From contig LWDK01000044.1 of NCBI GenBank assembly GCA_002083485.1, positions 12,613-76,612 on the forward strand: a DNA stretch of 64,000 bases, in the 5' to 3' direction. A program made the position numbers and the translations under genes. This DNA is from Proteobacteria bacterium SG_bin7. GTDB taxonomy: Bacteria > Bdellovibrionota > Bdellovibrionia > Bdellovibrionales > SG-bin7. Below are positions 26,477-49,901 of this stretch, one piece after another (position 1 is the first letter of the stretch; each line of letters starts with the position of its first letter). The notes beneath the pieces are model-generated. The model did no database searches. It was not told where the DNA came from and saw nothing but the letters and a program-made list of their open reading frames with translations.

Positions 26477-26689
26477 TTAAATTCCTTTACGAGTCAACGC
26501 ACTGACTTCTTTGTTCTTGCGGCCCTGGCGCAAATCGCTCTTCACGACCTCACTCATTATTTTTTCCTCCAGGCCATTCCAGTATTCTTCCTCGACAGGA
26601 AGGCCTTCGTTTTTAGATAGTTTTACGGCAAGTTGCCACTGCCACTCCCAATTATCGAGCTCATTTGATGAATCATTACCTAGACTCAT
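26477..26689 (-). CDS. Small Trp/acidic-rich protein translationally coupled to the ECF sigma factor (candidate anti-sigma)
   Basis: ATGA overlap with the sigma gene stop. 70 aa with no TM segment and no HxxxCxxC motif. The call rests on position only. Confidence 0.35.
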   Translation of the reverse strand: MSLGNDSSNELDNWEWQWQLAVKLSKNEGLPVEEEYWNGLEEKIMSEVVKSDLRQGRKNKEVSALTRKGI

Positions 26690-27351
26690 TGTTCTATCCC
26701 TTCTGTGTGGCTCACGAATCCAAGGCTCGAGACCACATCTTTTCTATTAAATAAAGTTAATAAATTCTTATCCGAAATCCTACTCTTCAATTTTATTAAA
26801 GCATGACGATAATTGGCCTTTGCTGTGTCGTAGGGGCATTCCATAATCTGAGCAACTTCCTTGAAACTCAGATCTTCATACACCCGCAACACCAACGCCA
26901 TCTTCTGTCTTTCGGGAAGCTCATCAATTGCTTGATTCAAAGCCTCTTTTAAGTCCACGCCCTCTAAATCGCTCTCAGCTTCTGGCGAAACTGCGATATT
27001 AACTTTGCTAATATCGAGAGCTTCATGCCTTTTTCCCCGCAATTTATTTTTTGCAGTGTTAATTGAAATTTGAAACAACCAACTTTTAAAGGCGGCTCTT
27101 CCTTCGAAGAGATGTAGCTTCTGATATGTTTTCAAGAAAGTTTCTTGCACTACATCCTCCGCGGTTTCAAGATCTCGCACAATTCGCAAGGCCATCCGCA
27201 GAACCGATTTTTGGTATTTACGCACCAAAATCGAAAAAGCGGCTCGATCACCTTGGCGAATCCGAGCTATGATCGTTAAGTCTGAAGCGTTTTCTTCAGA
27301 ACCGATGCTTAGACCCGACTTGTCCTTAGTCGGGTTAATATCTCTTTTCAT
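26686..27351 (-). CDS. ECF-type RNA polymerase sigma-70 family factor
   Basis: Region 2 (FSILVRKYQKSVLRMALRIVRDLETAEDVVQETFLKTY) and region 4 HTH (ELPERQKMALVLRVYEDLSFKEVAQIMECPYDTAKANYRHALIKLK). Confidence 0.85.
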   Translation of the reverse strand: MKRDINPTKDKSGLSIGSEENASDLTIIARIRQGDRAAFSILVRKYQKSVLRMALRIVRDLETAEDVVQETFLKTYQKLHLFEGRAAFKSWLFQISINTAKNKLRGKRHEALDISKVNIAVSPEAESDLEGVDLKEALNQAIDELPERQKMALVLRVYEDLSFKEVAQIMECPYDTAKANYRHALIKLKSRISDKNLLTLFNRKDVVSSLGFVSHTEGIEQ

Positions 27352-27561
27352 AACTTCCTCCGCACCTAAAAGTGGTTAATAATGTTGAGGAATTTCGTGT
27401 TGTGCTTCACTGCTGAGGCCTAGGGACTTCATGTCCCCGGGGCATCCCTCTGCGCGTAGTTATTTCAAATGATATGCCTGAAAAAAATGCACCACTTGAA
27501 CGCCAGCTACAATACAAAGTGCCTGACACTCTTTTCCGTCTACATCGTGTCAATATGGTTT

Positions 27562-30311: not shown

Positions 30312-31541
30312 TTAGTTTTTTAAGATTTGTTTAGCTAGTCTTTTTCCTAGTTCCACACCGGGCTGGTCAAAAGCATTAATATTTAGATGCTCGCCTAGAC
30401 CTGCGACCACAACTTGAAACAACATAAAAAGAGCCGCTAATTCTTTTTCTCTAATTTGACCCACACGCAGACTCAAACTTTGCACACCCATTTGCTCTAA
30501 GCCCTGTGCTGTCGCGCAGGCTTGCGCTGCAAAAACTCGACCAAGGTTTTTGTTTTGAAAACCTAAACCACTCTCAAAAATATCCTTTTTTAGCTGTGTA
30601 CCATAATCTTCACTTTCCGAGGCGCGCAAAAACCAAATGAATTTGTCCCGCGGCCCCTCGGCAATTTGTTGGAGTACCGAGTGTTGGTCACAACTCCCTG
30701 TCAATGGAATCGGCGTACTCGCGCGAGCCGCAGGATTATTTTTGCGATCGACCTTTTTCGCCAAAGACTCTGCCCATAACTGCTGGTACCATAAACCAAA
30801 ATTCCTAAGAGCATCACAATAAGTCCACAAACAGGTAATCCATTCTTCGCGCCTAAAACTCGCAATACTTTGAGCAATCAACTGAACCGTGACGTCTTGT
30901 TTTTGGATCCCCCAAAGCGCCCCTTGACGAATGTCTTCTAAATTTAAACCCATAAACGCCGCTGGCAATAATCCAACGGGGGTTAAAACAGAAAACCTGC
31001 CACCCACATCCACCGGAATTTCAAGAATGGGAACATTATTTTTTCCTGCCCAGTTTGTTAAAATATTTTCTCGGGCCTCAGAAATGACAGTACACTGCTT
31101 CGCAAATTCCTTTTTTGTTTTCTTCTTTAACCACTGCGCTGCAAAATTTCCCATTGCCAGTGTTTCCACAGTATTTCCACTTTTTGAAACAAGTACGAAA
31201 TGGGTTTTTTGTGGTTTTTTTATTTGCTCTAATTGTTTCCAAAAATAATTCCCATCAATATTATCTATAAACTCAACGGTAAACTTCTTAGCCTTAAAAC
31301 CTAACACTTCCACGATAGCTTTTCCACCCATTGAACTGCCACCAATACCAAATACTACCATGTGATCAAATTTCTTCTGAATCTCTTTAGCCCGCTTTTT
31401 ACTCGTCTCGAATAAGTATTTTCTTTCAGGGATTTGATGGAACCCAATATCTGTTCTTTTTAAAAATTTTTCCAGAGCAGCTTCAGCCGCCTTGAGATCA
31501 CCAGCTTTTGGTTGACTGGTAGAATGAGTCAAGAAAATCAT
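30312..31541 (-). CDS. pgi: Glucose-6-phosphate isomerase (short bacterial type)
   Basis: SIS-domain motifs VVFGIGGSSMGGKA and VLVSKSGNTVET. Size is about 410 aa. Confidence 0.8.
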   Translation of the reverse strand: MIFLTHSTSQPKAGDLKAAEAALEKFLKRTDIGFHQIPERKYLFETSKKRAKEIQKKFDHMVVFGIGGSSMGGKAIVEVLGFKAKKFTVEFIDNIDGNYFWKQLEQIKKPQKTHFVLVSKSGNTVETLAMGNFAAQWLKKKTKKEFAKQCTVISEARENILTNWAGKNNVPILEIPVDVGGRFSVLTPVGLLPAAFMGLNLEDIRQGALWGIQKQDVTVQLIAQSIASFRREEWITCLWTYCDALRNFGLWYQQLWAESLAKKVDRKNNPAARASTPIPLTGSCDQHSVLQQIAEGPRDKFIWFLRASESEDYGTQLKKDIFESGLGFQNKNLGRVFAAQACATAQGLEQMGVQSLSLRVGQIREKELAALFMLFQVVVAGLGEHLNINAFDQPGVELGKRLAKQILKN

Positions 31542-41225: not shown

Positions 41226-41348
41226 ATATTTTTAAAAATGTAGCCATTGTGAAACCAGTGGTATCAAAAAAGCTGTTTGTTTTTTCATCATCAGTGATTT
41301 AATGGCTCCATAAAATATCGAAAATGTCCCAACTTTAGCCTTTACGCG

Positions 41349-41365
41349 TTGGCAGTGTTGTTGCT
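41349..41365 (+). promoter_or_regulatory. Sigma-54 (RpoN) -24/-12 promoter TTGGCAGtgttgTTGCT
   Basis: The GG and GC dinucleotides are spaced exactly as in TGGCAC-N5-TTGCW. It lies 108 nt upstream of the ATG at 41473. The same core occurs at 49902-49918 on the minus strand. Confidence 0.6.
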
Positions 41366-41472
41366 ATAGCTAAAAATGCAATAACGAAAAGGGGATGCGT
41401 TTAAAGTTTTCAAAAGGATTTACTTTGGCTGCGTCCAGTTAATTAACCACCTAAATAAGAGAAGGAGAAAAT

Positions 41473-42357
41473 ATGAAAAGAACTCTTATTTCATTAATCG
41501 CGAGCGCAGCAGTTGCTGTTTCGCTTTCTGCTAACGCCCACGAAGGACACGGTCTTCCCGGCCCATCTGCTGGCGAAATCATTCAAACAGGAGTCAACGT
41601 CGTTGTAAACGTTGGTGACCTCGTAGTTAGTTTTGGCCAAACAGCTTTGGTTCGTTTTCCAAAGTCAGCTGCTGAAACTGCAAAAAATTTGGCAAAATGT
41701 ATTCATGACGGAATCCATGCAAATACAGCTGGCCAAGTAGTAACTACTCCAGTTCTTTGTCCGGTAACAATTGGAACTGAAGCCGCAACCGCAATCGTGC
41801 TCACTGGCCTTGCTGGTGCACAAGCAGTTGTTGCCGTTCCATCTAAATTTGCAAAAGAGATCGCTGCGATCTTTTTGAAATCCAGTAAAGAGGCGTGGGA
41901 TGCTTTGGCAAATTACAACCAAAACCCAATTTTCTGGCTTTTAAATCTTGGTGTTTGCGTTACTAACCACGTGATCGGCCGCGCTGCTCAATTAGGCGCT
42001 GCGGTGATCGATCTAGTTTCAACGACAGTTGGCGCAGTTGTAGAACTTGCCGTTGCTGGTGTTAGAACAGGCATTAAGTACGCTTCTGATGCAGTTATCA
42101 TGGTAGCTGATTGTGTTACTACTAAGGTAAAATTCCTTGGCAAAGAGCTATATGGCCTTGGCAAAGGAGTGTTGGTGTCGGCAGTAAAAGCTGGTCACCT
42201 TGATGTTAAGGGCGCTGCTCAATACTTTATGGATAACGTTGTTGCCCGCCTTGTAACTCTTCCTATTCGCATCATCACTGGTGAAGCATTAGGTACAGTG
42301 ATTGCGGGTTCATATCCAAAATACGAAGATGCTCGAGGCCCTATTTCTACTTACTAA
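41473..42357 (+). CDS. Secreted Ala/Gly/Val-rich protein of unknown family (P1)
   Basis: AAGGAG SD, signal peptide ...SLSANA|HEGHG and four Cys. C-terminal KYEDARGP resembles PYADARMG of the 316-aa protein at 47911. A/T-ending codon preference suggests high expression. Confidence 0.6.
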   Translation: MKRTLISLIASAAVAVSLSANAHEGHGLPGPSAGEIIQTGVNVVVNVGDLVVSFGQTALVRFPKSAAETAKNLAKCIHDGIHANTAGQVVTTPVLCPVTIGTEAATAIVLTGLAGAQAVVAVPSKFAKEIAAIFLKSSKEAWDALANYNQNPIFWLLNLGVCVTNHVIGRAAQLGAAVIDLVSTTVGAVVELAVAGVRTGIKYASDAVIMVADCVTTKVKFLGKELYGLGKGVLVSAVKAGHLDVKGAAQYFMDNVVARLVTLPIRIITGEALGTVIAGSYPKYEDARGPISTY

Positions 42358-42384
42358 ATTAGACATTCGAGTTCTTCACTCTTC

Positions 42385-42419
42385 GAGGGCCGACCTGATG
42401 GTTGGCCCTTGTTATTTTT
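42385..42419 (+). terminator. Rho-independent terminator after P1
   Basis: GAGGGCCGAC-ctgatg-GTTGGCCCTT (10 bp including 2 G-U pairs) followed by GTTATTTTT. Confidence 0.75.
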
Positions 42420-42428
42420 AGGGGTGTT

Positions 42429-43538
42429 ATGATTCCTTACCAAAAAATTCCCAAAGGCTTTTTAGCTGGACGATTGGTAGCTCAAGATATTTTACTTTTG
42501 CCTAATGGAGAAAAGCAAAATATTGGATCTATCGCAAAAAATGTTGGAGATATTGGAGATGTGATCGCGGTAAGTTCCGATTTGAAATTAGCGGTACTTC
42601 TTGCCCCTTCACTAGAAGAAACAAAATTAATTGATAGCCATCACTGGGCCCTTCAATGGCCGAAGTTTCTTCAATCTATTCGCGATTATTTTAAATCGGA
42701 AGAGTTTAACGAAGTGAATACGCCGACCCTCGTTCAAAGTTCGGGCGCCGAAACACATTTAGATCCATTCACGACAGCTTTTAAAGGCAAGACCTACTAC
42801 TTGCCAACGAGCCCAGAGTTCCATTTAAAGAGATTGTTGTCTTCAGGAATAAATAAAATTTTTGAAATTAAAACTTGCTTCCGCCAGGACGAAGCTTCAA
42901 TCACCCATAGCCCGGAATTTACAATGCTGGAGTGGTATCGCGGCTATGCTGGAATTGACGAAATCATCAAAGACGTCAAGGGACTTTTAAAATACGTTGG
43001 CGAACAAACAACGACCGATGTCGTTTCTATGAAAGATCTCTTTAAGAGATATCTAGATTTTGAATTAAGTCCACAGATAACAATTGAGGAATTAAAAACA
43101 ATCTGTCCCGAAAGCGAAAGTACCGATACTTGGAGTGATGTCTTTTTTCGAATTTTCTTAGAAAAAATTGAACCCCAAATTGGAATAGAAAGACCGATCA
43201 TTGTTCGCGATTTTCCCCCGACCATGTCAGCTCTTGCAAGAATTAATGAACAAGGGTGGGCTGATAGATTTGAAGTTTATTGGCGTGGCTTAGAATTAGG
43301 AAATGCTTATGATGAATTGAACGACCCCGTCGAGTGCGAGAAAAGACTAAAGCAATGGAATCAAGAAAAGAAGTTTTTAGGAAAGGCCTCCGTTCCGCTC
43401 TCAAAAGAGTTAATAAGCGCGTTGCGTTCGGGAATGCCACCATCAGGCGGAATCGCCGTGGGCCTTGAACGTTTGTTTATGGCAATTAACAACATCAACG
43501 ATATTAATAAAACTCGGTTCTTTAGTTCCGAAAAATAG
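42429..43538 (+). CDS. epmA: EF-P lysine aminoacylase EpmA (GenX/PoxA, class II LysRS paralogue) with N-terminal extension
   Basis: Colinear with E. coli EpmA from FKSEEFNEVNTP...LPTSPEFHLKRLL...CFRQDE...HSPEFTMLEWYR to ...GMPPSGGIAVGLERL. The track start 42402 lies inside the P1 terminator, so I used the ATG at 42429 (AGGGG 4 nt upstream). Confidence 0.8.
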   Translation: MIPYQKIPKGFLAGRLVAQDILLLPNGEKQNIGSIAKNVGDIGDVIAVSSDLKLAVLLAPSLEETKLIDSHHWALQWPKFLQSIRDYFKSEEFNEVNTPTLVQSSGAETHLDPFTTAFKGKTYYLPTSPEFHLKRLLSSGINKIFEIKTCFRQDEASITHSPEFTMLEWYRGYAGIDEIIKDVKGLLKYVGEQTTTDVVSMKDLFKRYLDFELSPQITIEELKTICPESESTDTWSDVFFRIFLEKIEPQIGIERPIIVRDFPPTMSALARINEQGWADRFEVYWRGLELGNAYDELNDPVECEKRLKQWNQEKKFLGKASVPLSKELISALRSGMPPSGGIAVGLERLFMAINNINDINKTRFFSSEK

Positions 43539-44049: not shown

Positions 44050-46152
44050 TCACGCGGCGTTTCTAGAGTTCAAAAAACTACTGAGTTGAACGCCCAGTTC
44101 ATTGATATCACCTTCAGCAGTGTTAACAAGTTCACCTATATTTTCCCAAGAAAGATTTTCGGCGTGCTCGATAACGTCAAGCTTTTTACAAATGTCATTT
44201 GCAAAGAAGTTGGCGATAGTTCCACGTAACGTATGCGCTGATATTCGCAAGAGTTTGGCATCTTTTTTAGTAACAGCAGTTTGCAAATTTCCAAGAAGAT
44301 TCGGAACTGTTTTTAAATAGCCGTTTATAAATTTTATCAAAATTTCTTCGTCGCCGGCAAAATGCTGCAACAAAAGATCTTTATTCAAGTGAACTGTTTT
44401 TTGAGTCTGAACCTTATTGGTCTTGGCTTCTTCGTTAGCCATCGTTGTATTCGAACGAACCCTTAAAATCGCCTCAGCTAGGGAGATCACTGTAAAGGGT
44501 TTCGGAACAAAGTCATCCATACCGGCATCACGACAATACTTTTGATCTTTCATTGTGGCACTCGCGGTCAAAGCTATAATCCAAGGCTGTCTCTCTACCG
44601 CTAGTCGCCGTCGCAAGGTTTTAGTCGTAATATAACCATCCATTTCCGGCATCTGCCCGTCCATAAAAATAACGTCGTAAAATTTAGTATCAATGGCATC
44701 TAAGACTTCAAGTCCGTTTCCAACAGCATCCACGCGATAGCCTAGCATTTCCAGATACTGCTTTGCTAAAAGCTGGTTCGTAGAGTTATCGTCGGCAACT
44801 AAAATACTGTAGGGCTTCTTCCTGGCAAGATCTCTATCAAATTCAAAGCCATCAACCTCACCAGCATTTTTGCGATTTCCTTTTCTGGCTGAAACCTTAA
44901 ATGAAAAGGTCGTCCCAACCCCGAGCTGACTTTCAAAACCGATTGACCCGCCCATGGATTCGCAAATTCCCTTACAGATTACAAGGCCAAGACCAGTGCC
45001 ACCATATTTGCGTGTGGTCGATGCATCAACCTGAGTAAAGGATTGAAATAGCTTGTCCTTCACATCATCTGGGATGCCAATTCCAGAGTCTTTTATCGAG
45101 ACATTGATTTCAATTTTATCGTCCGATACCTCTTTAATAGAAGTAATAATGCAAACTTCTCCTTTTGGAGTAAATTTTATTGCGTTACCCACAAGATTAT
45201 TTAAAACCTGTCTTAAACGCGTTGAGTCCGTTAGAACCCAAAAGTCGTCAGGAATACTTGATTTCAGTGAGAGTCCTATTCCTTTATCTTTGGCGCGCGA
45301 GTTAAAAAGGATGATGACATCTCGTAAAAGCATATTCACGTTAAAATTAACATCTTCCAGTATTAATTTACCAGCTTCCATTTTTGAGAAATCCAAAATG
45401 TCATTTATTAAAGTTAAGAGTGTGTCTCCGCAGGTCGTCATTATATTTAAATAGTTTTTACCATCGTCTGAAAGGTTTTCTTTACGTAAGAGATTTGCCA
45501 TTCCTAAAATTCCGTTAATGGGTGTGCGAATTTCATGACTGACATTGGCAATAAACTGCGATTTGACATTCGCGGCTCGGTCGAGCTGAAGGTTTTTTTC
45601 TTTGAGCGTGTCTTCGATCTGTTCTCGCTCTAGATATTCGCGAGCTTGTGTACGGATTTGCAAAATCAAAAATAAGTAGTACGTAATAAGCATAAGTGCT
45701 AATGGCTCACCGGCAGAATGGGTTGCACTTAAAAAAAAAGGCGGTAATAACAGAAAGGTCAAAAAAAGCACCGCCCCGACAAAACTAGGAACCAAGGCTG
45801 TGAGTGCCGCTGCGGCTACCCCACAAGTCACAAGCAACAAAACTAATGTCGATGAATGTTGAATTCCATATTGATGAATTGCAAAGGAACAGAAACCACC
45901 CCATCCGAATGCAATCAAAGCCAATTGGATAAAAAATATCCGACTCTTAAAAATTCCGAAACGCAATAGTCGGGTCACATTTACAATTACAATGAGAGCA
46001 ATAAATGAGTGCGCAACTAACGGAAAATCTCTTTCAAGATCCGTAAAAAAATAAACCACGGTCGCTAGAACCATATGCCCAAAGGAACTACTGACAGCTC
46101 TTTTTGCGAGTTCTTTTTTGGATCTCGGAGAAATTGAAAAAAATGCCGACAT
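44050..46152 (-). CDS. Hybrid sensor histidine kinase / response regulator with C-terminal HPt domain
   Basis: Multi-TM N-terminus. HisKA SHEIRTPINGILGM. HATPase (DSGIGIP, GGTGLGL). REC (ILVADDNSTNQ...FMDGQMPEMDG). HPt (SAHTLRGTIANF). Confidence 0.9.
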   Translation of the reverse strand: MSAFFSISPRSKKELAKRAVSSSFGHMVLATVVYFFTDLERDFPLVAHSFIALIVIVNVTRLLRFGIFKSRIFFIQLALIAFGWGGFCSFAIHQYGIQHSSTLVLLLVTCGVAAAALTALVPSFVGAVLFLTFLLLPPFFLSATHSAGEPLALMLITYYLFLILQIRTQAREYLEREQIEDTLKEKNLQLDRAANVKSQFIANVSHEIRTPINGILGMANLLRKENLSDDGKNYLNIMTTCGDTLLTLINDILDFSKMEAGKLILEDVNFNVNMLLRDVIILFNSRAKDKGIGLSLKSSIPDDFWVLTDSTRLRQVLNNLVGNAIKFTPKGEVCIITSIKEVSDDKIEINVSIKDSGIGIPDDVKDKLFQSFTQVDASTTRKYGGTGLGLVICKGICESMGGSIGFESQLGVGTTFSFKVSARKGNRKNAGEVDGFEFDRDLARKKPYSILVADDNSTNQLLAKQYLEMLGYRVDAVGNGLEVLDAIDTKFYDVIFMDGQMPEMDGYITTKTLRRRLAVERQPWIIALTASATMKDQKYCRDAGMDDFVPKPFTVISLAEAILRVRSNTTMANEEAKTNKVQTQKTVHLNKDLLLQHFAGDEEILIKFINGYLKTVPNLLGNLQTAVTKKDAKLLRISAHTLRGTIANFFANDICKKLDVIEHAENLSWENIGELVNTAEGDINELGVQLSSFLNSRNAA

Positions 46153-46223: not shown

Positions 46224-46505
46224 TTAGGTACCCTTATTAATATCTTCCCTTAGTTCTTTGCCAACTTTAAAAAATGGAAGTTTCTTTTCGCCCACATTGA
46301 TGACTTCTCCAGTTCGTGGGTTTCTCCCTTGGTAGGAACCATAAGCGCGATTTACAAACGATCCAAAACCACGAATCTCTATGCGGTCATCCTTTAACAA
46401 AGCTTCCGTCATTGTATCAAAAATAGTATTCACAACGGTTTCGGCTTTAACTCGAGTTATTCCAGCTTTTTCAGAAATAAGGTTGATTAGATCCGCTTTC
46501 GTCAT
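46224..46505 (-). CDS. ihfB: Integration host factor beta subunit (HU/IHF family)
   Basis: MTKADLI...RIEIRGFGSF...GRNPRTGE...PFFKVGKELRE closely parallels E. coli IHF-beta. Confidence 0.85.
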   Translation of the reverse strand: MTKADLINLISEKAGITRVKAETVVNTIFDTMTEALLKDDRIEIRGFGSFVNRAYGSYQGRNPRTGEVINVGEKKLPFFKVGKELREDINKGT

Positions 46506-47910: not shown

Positions 47911-48861
47911 TTAGTTGCTACGAGGGTCACGGTATCCTTGTGTATTGACTCCAGGAAATCGGGGGTCATAACCCATTCTTGCATCTGCATATGGAATCAC
48001 AACAGTCACCATTCCTGGTTGACCAATGTCGTTAGGCATACATCCAAGAAGAGCACCGTACACAAAGTTAGGAATAGTTTCCATAAGTTTGGAGGCTAGT
48101 GGTCCTGGCTGACTATTTCCGTCTTTATCTACGATTTTAATTTCTTTATAAGCCTCTGCTAAATCTGCACCCAGAACTGCGCGACCAAGACCTCGTATCA
48201 TATGTTGCGGAATATGTGGCAATTGAAAGGTCACATTTATAATAGCAGAAACGCGTTTTAAAATTTCTCCGCCAGCTTGCGCGAAAAGGCCAAGACCAGA
48301 AGACCCAAGGCCCAACATTGAGCTAAGTCCACCCATGAAAAAGTTTCTCGACTTCGCGGCTTTTTGCATGCTTTCTCCAGCTACCCCCAAGCCTGCTTGA
48401 GCTAAATTAACGGCATCGATATTAAGAGCATCGGCACTGTACTTAACAATGCCTTCGGTGAGATTACCAACTCCATCAGTAACATTGATGGTAGTATCGG
48501 TGATGCTTTGTAGAAAACATTCCACACGGCGCTGAAAACGAGTACCAAACTTTTTATAGTCTTCGGTGTTCAGTGGAGTTTTTGTGTCAATATTTCCGTC
48601 TTGATCTTTCAAGCCATCAAATGTTTTAAGCAGACAGCTTCCTGTACCGGTGACGTTCCACGCAATGCCTTGGTATTCGGCATTGCCTTTAGCGATTCTA
48701 ATAAAGTTATCTGGTAATTTATTAAATAGCGCGTCGCCAGTGCGTTCCAATAAGTTTCCGGGATCTTTTACTTTCGTATCATCAGGGCATCTATCTAAAG
48801 CTACGGCCAAGTTTGAAGTTAGAGAGAAGACAACTAAAGATAATGTCGCAAGACTTTTCAT
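47911..48861 (-). CDS. Secreted protein of unknown family (P3), paralogue of P2
   Basis: Signal peptide ...SNLAVA|LD. Block C76-C115 (CLLKTFDGLKDQDGNIDTKTPLNTEDYKKFGTRFQRRVEC) shares 17/40 ungapped identities with P2 C73-C112. GGAG SD. Confidence 0.6.
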   Translation of the reverse strand: MKSLATLSLVVFSLTSNLAVALDRCPDDTKVKDPGNLLERTGDALFNKLPDNFIRIAKGNAEYQGIAWNVTGTGSCLLKTFDGLKDQDGNIDTKTPLNTEDYKKFGTRFQRRVECFLQSITDTTINVTDGVGNLTEGIVKYSADALNIDAVNLAQAGLGVAGESMQKAAKSRNFFMGGLSSMLGLGSSGLGLFAQAGGEILKRVSAIINVTFQLPHIPQHMIRGLGRAVLGADLAEAYKEIKIVDKDGNSQPGPLASKLMETIPNFVYGALLGCMPNDIGQPGMVTVVIPYADARMGYDPRFPGVNTQGYRDPRSN

Positions 48862-48934: not shown

Positions 48935-49798
48935 TTAGTTCTTTTTAAGTTCAATTGAATATTGAGCTCTGTTAACGATTTCAAGAAGCTCTTTATCGTC
49001 TTCAGCAAGAAGTACGTTTGGAGCTAAGTTGAAAATGCCAGCGATAGTTGAGATTGCATCTGTAGCGGCATTGAATGGTTCGAAAGTAGCTAGCTCAGTA
49101 CCAACATAAGTCGCATTTTTAACAACGCCTTTTGAAGTTTGAACTACTAAGTGAAGGCGTTTAGCGGCTTCGATAGTAAGAGTGTATCCAGCTTCGCCGA
49201 GAACTTCAATCATAGCACCGCCGATAACACCCGCAGCTGGAGCAGCTACAAGAGGTAACGCAGGAGCCATGAATACTAAATCAGTACCACGGATAATCCA
49301 ACGCCACATTTTTGTAACTCCACCTTTGCTTTCTTCTTTAATGTGGTGACCAGCGCGTCCTACGTAGTGAAGAGCTTTTCCACCAAGAACAAGAGCTTTA
49401 ACCGCACCTGCAGTTGAATAATCCAAGAACACGAAAGCAACACCTTCAGCAGTTTGAATTACGCAAGTTGCAGTTTTTTGGAAACGTTTTGCAAACGCAA
49501 TGTACTCTTGAGCAGTAAGAGGAGAGTTAACATCGATGTTTCCGTTTTGATCTCTTTTACCATCACGAGAAGCAACAGCGCACTGAACTCCTTGAGAAGC
49601 AGTGTTCAAAACGTCTTCAACAAGTTTCATACCCAATGAAGCTTCTAATCCAGAAACTAGAACTGACTTAACAGTTACATTTTGCATCGCAGGTATTTTA
49701 GATGCATTTAGCTCAGCATTCATAGATGCAGAGTCATGAGCTAAGGCTGATGTAGCCAAAGCAATAGTTGCTACAACAGCAAATATTTGTCTTTTCAT
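48935..49798 (-). CDS. Secreted Ala/Gly/Val-rich protein of unknown family (P2)
   Basis: AAGGAG SD and signal peptide ...TSALA|HDS. Conserved Cys-bounded block shared with P3. A/T-ending codon preference suggests high expression. Confidence 0.6.
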   Translation of the reverse strand: MKRQIFAVVATIALATSALAHDSASMNAELNASKIPAMQNVTVKSVLVSGLEASLGMKLVEDVLNTASQGVQCAVASRDGKRDQNGNIDVNSPLTAQEYIAFAKRFQKTATCVIQTAEGVAFVFLDYSTAGAVKALVLGGKALHYVGRAGHHIKEESKGGVTKMWRWIIRGTDLVFMAPALPLVAAPAAGVIGGAMIEVLGEAGYTLTIEAAKRLHLVVQTSKGVVKNATYVGTELATFEPFNAATDAISTIAGIFNLAPNVLLAEDDKELLEIVNRAQYSIELKKN

Positions 49799-49866: not shown

Positions 49867-49901
49867 ATAAAAACGAGATAACTCGATTCGGATGGTTCTT
49901 A

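Follow-up and report, generated by a model that had tools for sequence, protein, structure and literature searches.

A conserved sigma-54-type promoter core ahead of a rare, putatively exported protein in an uncultured Bdellovibrionales bacterium

Introduction

P1 (protein A4S09_04580) is a protein of 294 amino acids (aa) encoded in the metagenome-assembled genome 'Proteobacteria bacterium SG_bin7', within a 64-kb stretch of DNA that is called the window here and that was analysed on both strands. Its open reading frame (ORF; 41473-42357, +) is preceded by a core of the form TTGGCAG-N5-TTGCT, which has the layout of a sigma-54 (RpoN) promoter. The reading put forward here, at a probability of roughly 0.68, is that P1 constitutes a self-contained gene unit composed of a sigma-54-gated promoter, a gene for a Sec-exported helical protein and a terminator, and that a second locus in the window, encoding the exported proteins P2 and P3, is under the same type of promoter. 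The evidence comes from the window and from the orthologous regions of all detectable relatives, taken from assemblies labelled uncultured Bdellovibrionales. Six of these loci form a close set, the proteins of which are 67-88% identical to P1, and three syntenic loci (L008, L010 and L015) form a deeper set with P1 proteins at 39-51% identity.

The promoter core and its conservation

The core ahead of P1 (TTGGCAGTGTTGTTGCT) occupies 41349-41365 on the plus strand. The GG of its -24 element lies at 41351-41352 and the GC of its -12 element at 41363-41364, with a gap of exactly 10 base pairs (bp) and in the orientation of the gene, and the whole fits the canonical sigma-54 layout TGGCA-N6-TTGC. 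The GG and GC had been placed at RpoN spacing in an original prediction made from the letters of the window, and both were confirmed at these positions. The essentials of a sigma-54 promoter are a GG at -24 and a TGC at -12 (PMC3844500), and both sites of this kind in the window, that of P1 and that of P2, carry the two elements at exact spacing. Transcription of P1 is predicted to begin near 41376, 12 nucleotides (nt) past the C of the -12 element, which gives a leader of 97 nt, in agreement with the 95-110 nt estimated earlier.

The exact 12-base motif TTGGCAG-N5-TTGCT was found twice in the window against an expectation of 0.03, and none of 100 shuffled sequences contained it two or more times. 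The second copy (TTGGCAGCAGACTTGCT; 49918-49902, -), a recurrence 8.5 kb away that had also been predicted, is exact; it is intergenic and lies ahead of P2, with a predicted transcription start near 49891 and a leader of 93 nt. Looser forms of the motif were not enriched in the window: TGGCA-N6-TTGC was counted twice against 0.63 expected (at least two copies in 13 of 100 shuffles), and five sites with at most two mismatches to the motif were found against 6.55 expected. What carries statistical weight is therefore the core's exact recurrence, together with its placement and conservation, and not the motif counts.

In the six close orthologous loci, TGGC and TTGCT were found to be invariant, and the 7-base spacer between them differs (AGTGTTG, AGACTTA, CGAATTG, AAAATTG and CGAAATG). 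Fixed halves around a drifting spacer are the pattern expected of a two-block sigma-54 site, and the alignment supports such an assignment. The block TTGGC-N7-TTGCT also occurs 80-97 nt before the start codon in four further promoters, each of them upstream of an exported gene at the syntenic locus: the promoter of P2 in the window, that of P0010 in L016, that of P0011 in L017, and one at a second locus of L008, ahead of a gene for a 351-aa P0010-like protein. When the P1 promoter was aligned with these four, TTGGC-N7-TTGCT was the sole conserved block. The sigma-54 reading, which we infer from the DNA sequence, is thus supported by canonical spacing, by halves that are invariant in six loci, and by a block that is the only one common to four other promoters, and P1 would have a new example of a well-known kind of promoter.

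The upstream region and the leader

Orthologs share 80% identity over the 247-bp intergenic region that separates the upstream NUDIX gene from P1, compared with 54-59% for two neighbouring intergenic regions and about 58% at the four-fold degenerate sites of P1. No conserved small ORF that would account for this conservation was found in the region. At about -118, the palindrome ACCA-G-TGGT (41254-41262) has arms that are invariant, around a central G or C, in the six orthologous loci, and it is the best candidate for the site of an activator, that is, of an enhancer-binding protein. Its position fits the 70-150 bp upstream at which activator sites usually lie (PMC3844500). A further block from -56 to -28 (GAAAATGTCCCAACTTTAGCCTTTACGCG; 41320-41348, +) is nearly invariant in the orthologs and may be bound by a protein that bends DNA or acts as a regulator. 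A word resembling AAAATGTC seems to return in the other promoters of the family, 15-35 nt ahead of their -24 elements. Inspection by eye revealed no match to the consensus of IHF (WATCAANNNNTTR) between the palindrome and the core.

The predicted leader (41376-41472, +) is strongly conserved in the orthologs and contains a possible hairpin at about +18 to +61 and a Shine-Dalgarno sequence (SD), AAGGAG. The SD was located at 41462-41467, 5 nt ahead of the ATG at 41473, and bears out the strong translation signal that had been proposed. The hairpin was rejected as a structured element (z = -1.0, with almost no covariation), and the leader gave no match in Rfam. An 8-bp stem formed by AAUAAGAG and CUCUUAUU (41454-41461 with 41483-41490) would place the SD and the AUG in a 21-nt loop. 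This stem is invariant in the six orthologous loci, three synonymous sites included, for which the chance is roughly 0.04 given the codon background; it is only suggestive, because 35% of the codons for conserved residues are invariant anyway. The leaders of the family also share a loose common layout, in which YYGAA near the predicted start is followed by TTGGGC or TTTGGC and then, 20-35 nt before the SD, by TTTTTACTAAC, TTATTAAC or TTAATTAAC. This layout could be an operator that acts on the RNA, or else a weak internal promoter.

The P1 protein

P1 starts with a predicted Sec signal peptide of n-h-c layout (MKRTLISLIASAAVAVSLSANA; 41473-41538, +), consisting of MKR, the stretch TLISLIASAAVAVSLS and ANA, with cleavage predicted between ANA and HEGHG and without a lipobox Cys. 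The basic n-region, the h-region and the AXA motif are kept in all 11 members of the family alignment, as judged by eye, and have the properties expected of a substrate of Sec and signal peptidase I (SPase I). The signal peptide anticipated in the original prediction is therefore retained, and its layout is conserved in the family. The mature protein (41539-42357, +), of 272 aa followed by the stop codon, is hydrophobic and amphipathic-helical in character, with a grand average of hydropathy (GRAVY) of +0.51. Its composition (Ala 14%, Val 14%, Gly 10%) agrees with the Ala/Gly/Val-rich body described earlier. Alpha periodicity dominates the family-averaged hydrophobicity over residues 58-78 and 103-260.

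All four of the Cys residues reported for P1 (C76, C96, C162 and C213) are present. Two of them, C76 and C96, never vary within the family and are probable partners in a disulfide, and the other two are not conserved. Further invariant positions include G40-x-N42, N46-x-G48, V122-P123, G160, G169, T199-G200 and L263/R266. Nine of the 11 family members terminate in Tyr or Phe, the last 15-30 residues being otherwise unconserved, and the terminal Tyr/Phe might be a sorting or assembly signal.

The claim that P1 belongs to no recognisable family stood up to searches of curated profile libraries and of PDB sequences. P1 and its relatives were compared with Pfam, NCBIfam, PADLOC, PHROGs and the sequences of PDB; P1 gave no match, the profile search of PDB being carried to E 10, and distant members of the family gave scattered matches only, at E 0.008 or worse and each to a different family. 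P2 and P3 likewise had no meaningful match in Pfam, NCBIfam, PADLOC or PHROGs. Seven proteins at least 69% identical to P1 were found among 5.8 billion, and five cluster representatives of the family were found among 1.84 billion, all of which were scored with the profile. A third homolog search with a widened alignment added no new members, and a scan of viral contigs and plasmids revealed no relatives of P1. The family is extremely rare and is found in a few uncultured Bdellovibrio-like bacteria only. As a working model, mature P1 would be a Sec-exported, disulfide-stabilised, amphipathic helical protein located at the envelope or at membranes.

The terminator and the neighbouring genes

Downstream of P1, an intrinsic terminator was identified at 42384-42421 (+), the hairpin of which (42384-42411) has a 12-bp stem with 8 G-C pairs and a 4-nt loop and is followed by the tail TTATTTTT. 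Its folding energy is -25.9 kcal/mol (z = -5.7), and in the orthologs the stem is maintained by compensatory changes from C-G to T-A. Both results substantiate the clean terminator proposed earlier. An EpmA-like (PF00152) ORF starts 18 nt past the terminator, with no promoter-like site nearby (window 42358-42431). L017 (7423-9040) has no P1 gene at this place, and its NUDIX and EpmA-like genes adjoin each other directly. Since these genes abut in L017 and the EpmA-like ORF follows P1 so closely in the window, P1 resembles a promoter-gene-terminator cassette inside an older operon, and it looks like an insertion into that operon.

The P2-P3 locus

The second locus encodes P2, an exported protein of 287 aa (48935..49798, -) with no homologs other than P3, and P3, an exported paralog of 316 aa (47911..48861, -) that lies downstream of a hairpin following P2. 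The two are paralogous at E = 3e-12. The core ahead of P2 aligns with the promoters of its positional counterparts in L017, L016 and L008. In the P2 core, the -24 element is also the right-hand arm of an inverted repeat with perfect 7-bp arms, CTGCCAA-N5-TTGGCAG (49930-49912, -), which is absent from the P1 promoter and from the counterparts in L017, L016 and L008. This repeat could be a regulator site that overlaps the sigma-54 site.

The original prediction described the proteins behind the second core as similar to P1. This was not borne out by direct comparison, in which P1 against P2 and P3 gave BLAST E values of 1 or more and an hhalign probability of 0.8%; P2 and P3 were also compared with the distant family members P0010 and P0011, by BLAST and by profile-profile comparison, with negative results. 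The claim draws on positional equivalence and on weak bridging statistics. P2 and P3 occupy a slot flanked by the DUF4286/GcvP genes on one side and the glycosyltransferase-HU genes on the other. Its occupant in L017 is the P1-family gene P0011, preceded by the same promoter core. In L008 (13977-16073, -) a perfect TTGGCAG-N5-TTGCT precedes two genes in the slot, that of the 351-aa P0010-like protein and, after it, one for an exported protein of 277 aa. This tandem pair of exported proteins mirrors the P2-P3 arrangement of the window. The 277-aa protein scored 11.6 bits against the P1-family profile, a value reached by none of 1000 composition-matched shuffles, in an alignment that is collinear through the Cys pair, the VP motif and an NP-x-F motif, and it ends in YCDVRRGDCTEYD, like the C-terminus of P0008 (YCDIRWGKCPDYLTAY). 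Its score against the P2/P3 profile was weak (7.6 bits, 1 of 500 shuffles). P3 is weakly linked to the P1-family profile (its score was reached by 7 of 1000 shuffles), and P2 gave no significant match to that profile. Taken with the weak bridging by the L008 protein, the shared slot makes it probable that P2, P3 and the P1 proteins all belong to a single fast-evolving family, in which P2 and P3 would have diverged to an extreme degree.

Two other genes are situated between the promoters of P1 and P2. One encodes an HU/IHF-like DNA-binding protein (46224-46505, -), and the other encodes a hybrid histidine kinase of 700 aa (44050-46152, -) with HisKA-HATPase-REC architecture, as assigned by Pfam on the orthologous loci. 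Neither of them is a sigma-54 activator. An IHF-like protein might aid DNA looping at sigma-54 promoters.

How strong is the case for a sigma-54-gated unit?

A number of results weigh against the reading of P1 as a sigma-54-gated, self-contained unit. A sigma-54 matrix was trained on 29 Salmonella sites, with sequences from PMC3844500, from a phylum distant from that of the host. It gave 12.0 bits for P1 (rank 5 of about 128,000 positions) and 9.3 bits for P2 (rank 11), both below the 16.1 bits of the weakest training site; the orthologous sites scored 11.2-17.1 bits. These low scores weaken the sigma-54 claim but do not exclude it, the matrix being that of a distant phylum. Eight of the 12 best matrix matches in the window fall within ORFs of 150 aa or more, and one further match falls within a 114-aa DUF4286 ORF. 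The top match, at 31002 (-), was rejected as intragenic and devoid of the GC. Apart from the sites of P1 and P2, the only intergenic match among the 12 (TGTCAGGCACTTTGTATT; 27511-27528, -; 11.1 bits), about 177 nt upstream of a 221-aa ORF (26686..27351, -), is probably no site because both GG and GC are missing. The sites of P1 and P2 are the only canonical intergenic ones among these 12.

Regulators and deeper orthologs also count on the negative side. A six-frame search of the window for signatures of enhancer-binding proteins (GAFTGA, Walker A) and for the RpoN box found none, as had been noted for enhancer-binding proteins in the original prediction, and no RpoN or activator signature was found in 136 kb of related loci either. 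In favour of the sigma-54 reading, RpoN is encoded in the cultured relatives Bdellovibrio (bd0843; PMC3464611) and Bacteriovorax (rpoN; PMC3526173). The core is degenerate ahead of the P1 orthologs in L008 (TGCC-N7-TTGC; L008 9900-9935) and L010 (CGGCA-N6-TGGA; L010 about 2560-2600), and no core was seen ahead of that in L015 (about 230-527 inspected). Such degenerate or absent cores suggest promoter turnover in the P1 family. Since the deeper orthologs lack an intact GG/GC pair, control by sigma-54, if it exists, does not extend to every member of the family.

The 5' boundary of the unit is likewise less clear than the 3' boundary. Between the upstream operon and P1 no clear terminator was found, and a variable stretch after the NUDIX gene was unconvincing as a terminator on folding. 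Read-through from the upstream GDH-DHODH-NUDIX genes is therefore possible. The description of P1 as monocistronic is accordingly secure at the 3' end, where the terminator is strong, and less so at the 5' end. As for the protein, AlphaFold modelled P1 with low confidence, at predicted local distance difference test (pLDDT) values of 38 and 46 in runs with 7 and 11 sequences, respectively. Foldseek matches of the better model in PDB were rejected as ferritin-like noise (E 0.16 or worse, template-modelling score 0.17). With pLDDT values of 38-46, the claims of a helical bundle and of membrane association rest on sequence statistics only.

Alternative readings of the promoter have to account for the same sequences. 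The P1 promoter may be of sigma-70 type, with a -35 element TTTACG, an 18-nt spacer and an extended -10 element TGcTATAGC, its likeness to sigma-54 sites being incidental. Neither CTTTACGC nor TTGCTATAG varies among the six close orthologs, L010 shows by eye an extended -10-like word (TGTTATATT) at the aligned place, and such a promoter would be compatible with the sub-threshold sigma-54 matrix scores and with the retention of the gene in deeper orthologs without an intact GG/GC pair. However, the -10 candidate lacks the conserved final T, the 18-nt spacer is long, and a promoter scan missed TTTACG-18-TATAGC; the only plus-strand match of that scan, an overlapping TTGGCA-17-AAAAAT (9/12), varies among the orthologs. 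TTTACG-18-TATAGC is kept in the P1 clade only, and nothing resembling -35 and -10 elements was found at those positions in the promoters of P2, L016, L017 and the second L008 locus, all of which keep TTGGC-N7-TTGCT exactly. A sigma-70 promoter is considered very unlikely on this evidence. Rated slightly lower still is the proposal that TTGGC-N7-TTGCT serves a lineage-specific DNA-binding regulator as its operator, with the true promoter located elsewhere, for example in the leader near TTAATTAAC or TTTTTACTAAC. It draws on the P2 inverted repeat, half of which is the -24 element, on AT-rich, -10-like words that all family leaders carry 20-35 nt before the SD, and on conservation that spans the whole intergenic region beyond the core. 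Against this, the inverted repeat is found in P2 alone, the motif is asymmetric and agrees with the sigma-54 consensus at every essential position with exact spacing, and the scan gave no sigma-70-like site within the leader.

With regard to the location of the protein, P1 may be integral in the inner membrane after Sec insertion, with spans at about residues 104-124 and 174-198, rather than released or soluble. The GRAVY value, two 19-residue windows above 1.6 on the Kyte-Doolittle scale and abundant small-xxx-small motifs are in line with this. Yet the windows are marginal (peaks of 1.84-1.88) and contain the conserved charges R170, D180 and E191, the helices are amphipathic over most of the protein, and the AXA cleavage site is canonical and conserved, which makes integral insertion an unlikely outcome. 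The preferred description is that of an exported protein in association with the envelope or membranes.

Comparison with known systems

Validated enterobacterial sigma-54 promoters, such as those of Salmonella rpoH (TGGCACGGTTGTTGCTCG) and yjeB (TGGCAGATATTTTGCTTG), carry GG at -24 and TGC at -12 at a spacing identical to that of P1 (PMC3844500). P1 further resembles the Salmonella sites in the T before GG, the TT before GC, the intergenic position and a conserved upstream element at 70-150 bp. It differs from them in having G or A at the sixth position (TGGCAG/TGGCAA) instead of C or T, and in that both P1 and P2 score under all 29 of them with the matrix; sigma-54 control is here predicted from sequence.

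The pilA gene of Myxococcus and Pseudomonas is a sigma-54-dependent type IV pilin gene with PilR as its activator, and its product is an abundant exported structural protein. Like pilA, P1 is a single gene for an exported protein, with a sigma-54-type promoter and a terminator directly after it, in the former delta-proteobacteria. Unlike pilA, P1 encodes a classical SPase I signal peptide, with no prepilin leader, pilin motifs or Pfam match, and no genes of PilS/PilR type lie near it. A resemblance, and only that, was also noted to the pore-forming domains of colicins and to alpha-pore-forming toxins, with which P1 would share long amphipathic helices, Ala/Gly/Val-rich stretches and export. 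Unlike those toxins, P1 has no PDB sequence match, its hydrophobic stretches contain conserved charges, and no immunity or partner gene is evident.

Proposed mechanism

The following sequence of events is proposed for P1. Sigma-54 RNA polymerase would bind the -24/-12 core TTGGCAG-N5-TTGCT to give a closed complex. An ATP-hydrolysing enhancer-binding protein, which would be encoded elsewhere in the genome and would probably bind the palindrome at about -118, would be required for transcription to begin near 41376. The conserved 97-nt leader and the strong AAGGAG would then allow efficient translation, and the strong terminator would close the transcript. The product would leave the cytoplasm via Sec and be cut after ANA. 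Its mature form, in which Cys76 and Cys96 are probably disulfide-bonded, would adopt a hydrophobic, amphipathic and mostly alpha-helical fold, and it would most likely be associated with the envelope or a membrane. The P2-P3 locus, which in related genomes encodes proteins of the P1 family, would be under the same type of promoter. Taken together, P1 and P2-P3 would be the exported products of a small group of genes that evolves fast and is gated by sigma-54.

Implications for the Bdellovibrio-like bacteria

What does the P1 unit mean for these bacteria? As it stands, it represents an ordinary type of regulatory element before an orphan protein of an uncultured organism. It is worth following for its highly conserved regulatory region, for a family spread over two loci behind one type of promoter, and for the rarity of the protein. 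No promoter-level study of the RpoN regulon in predatory Bdellovibrio-like bacteria was found in the literature.

Sigma-54 promoters stay silent until a dedicated activator fires. A conserved site of this type therefore marks the exported orphans as tightly controlled by stage or signal. A broader and rather speculative proposal, which is regarded as unlikely in its full form, is that P1, P2, P3 and their relatives are rapidly diversifying, exported, membrane-active helical proteins, unique to one uncultured Bdellovibrionales clade and of a fold that structure databases do not yet contain. Sigma-54 and a single dedicated activator would switch them on jointly at a particular point of the life cycle, such as prey attack or envelope remodelling, and they would occupy two conserved chromosomal slots, one of them by insertion of a cassette into a housekeeping operon. 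Overall, if the sigma-54 reading is true, it would provide a lineage-specific promoter consensus, TTGGCA-N6-TTGCT, usable for whole-genome scans, together with a shortlist of proteins that are candidates for a role in the envelope or in predation.

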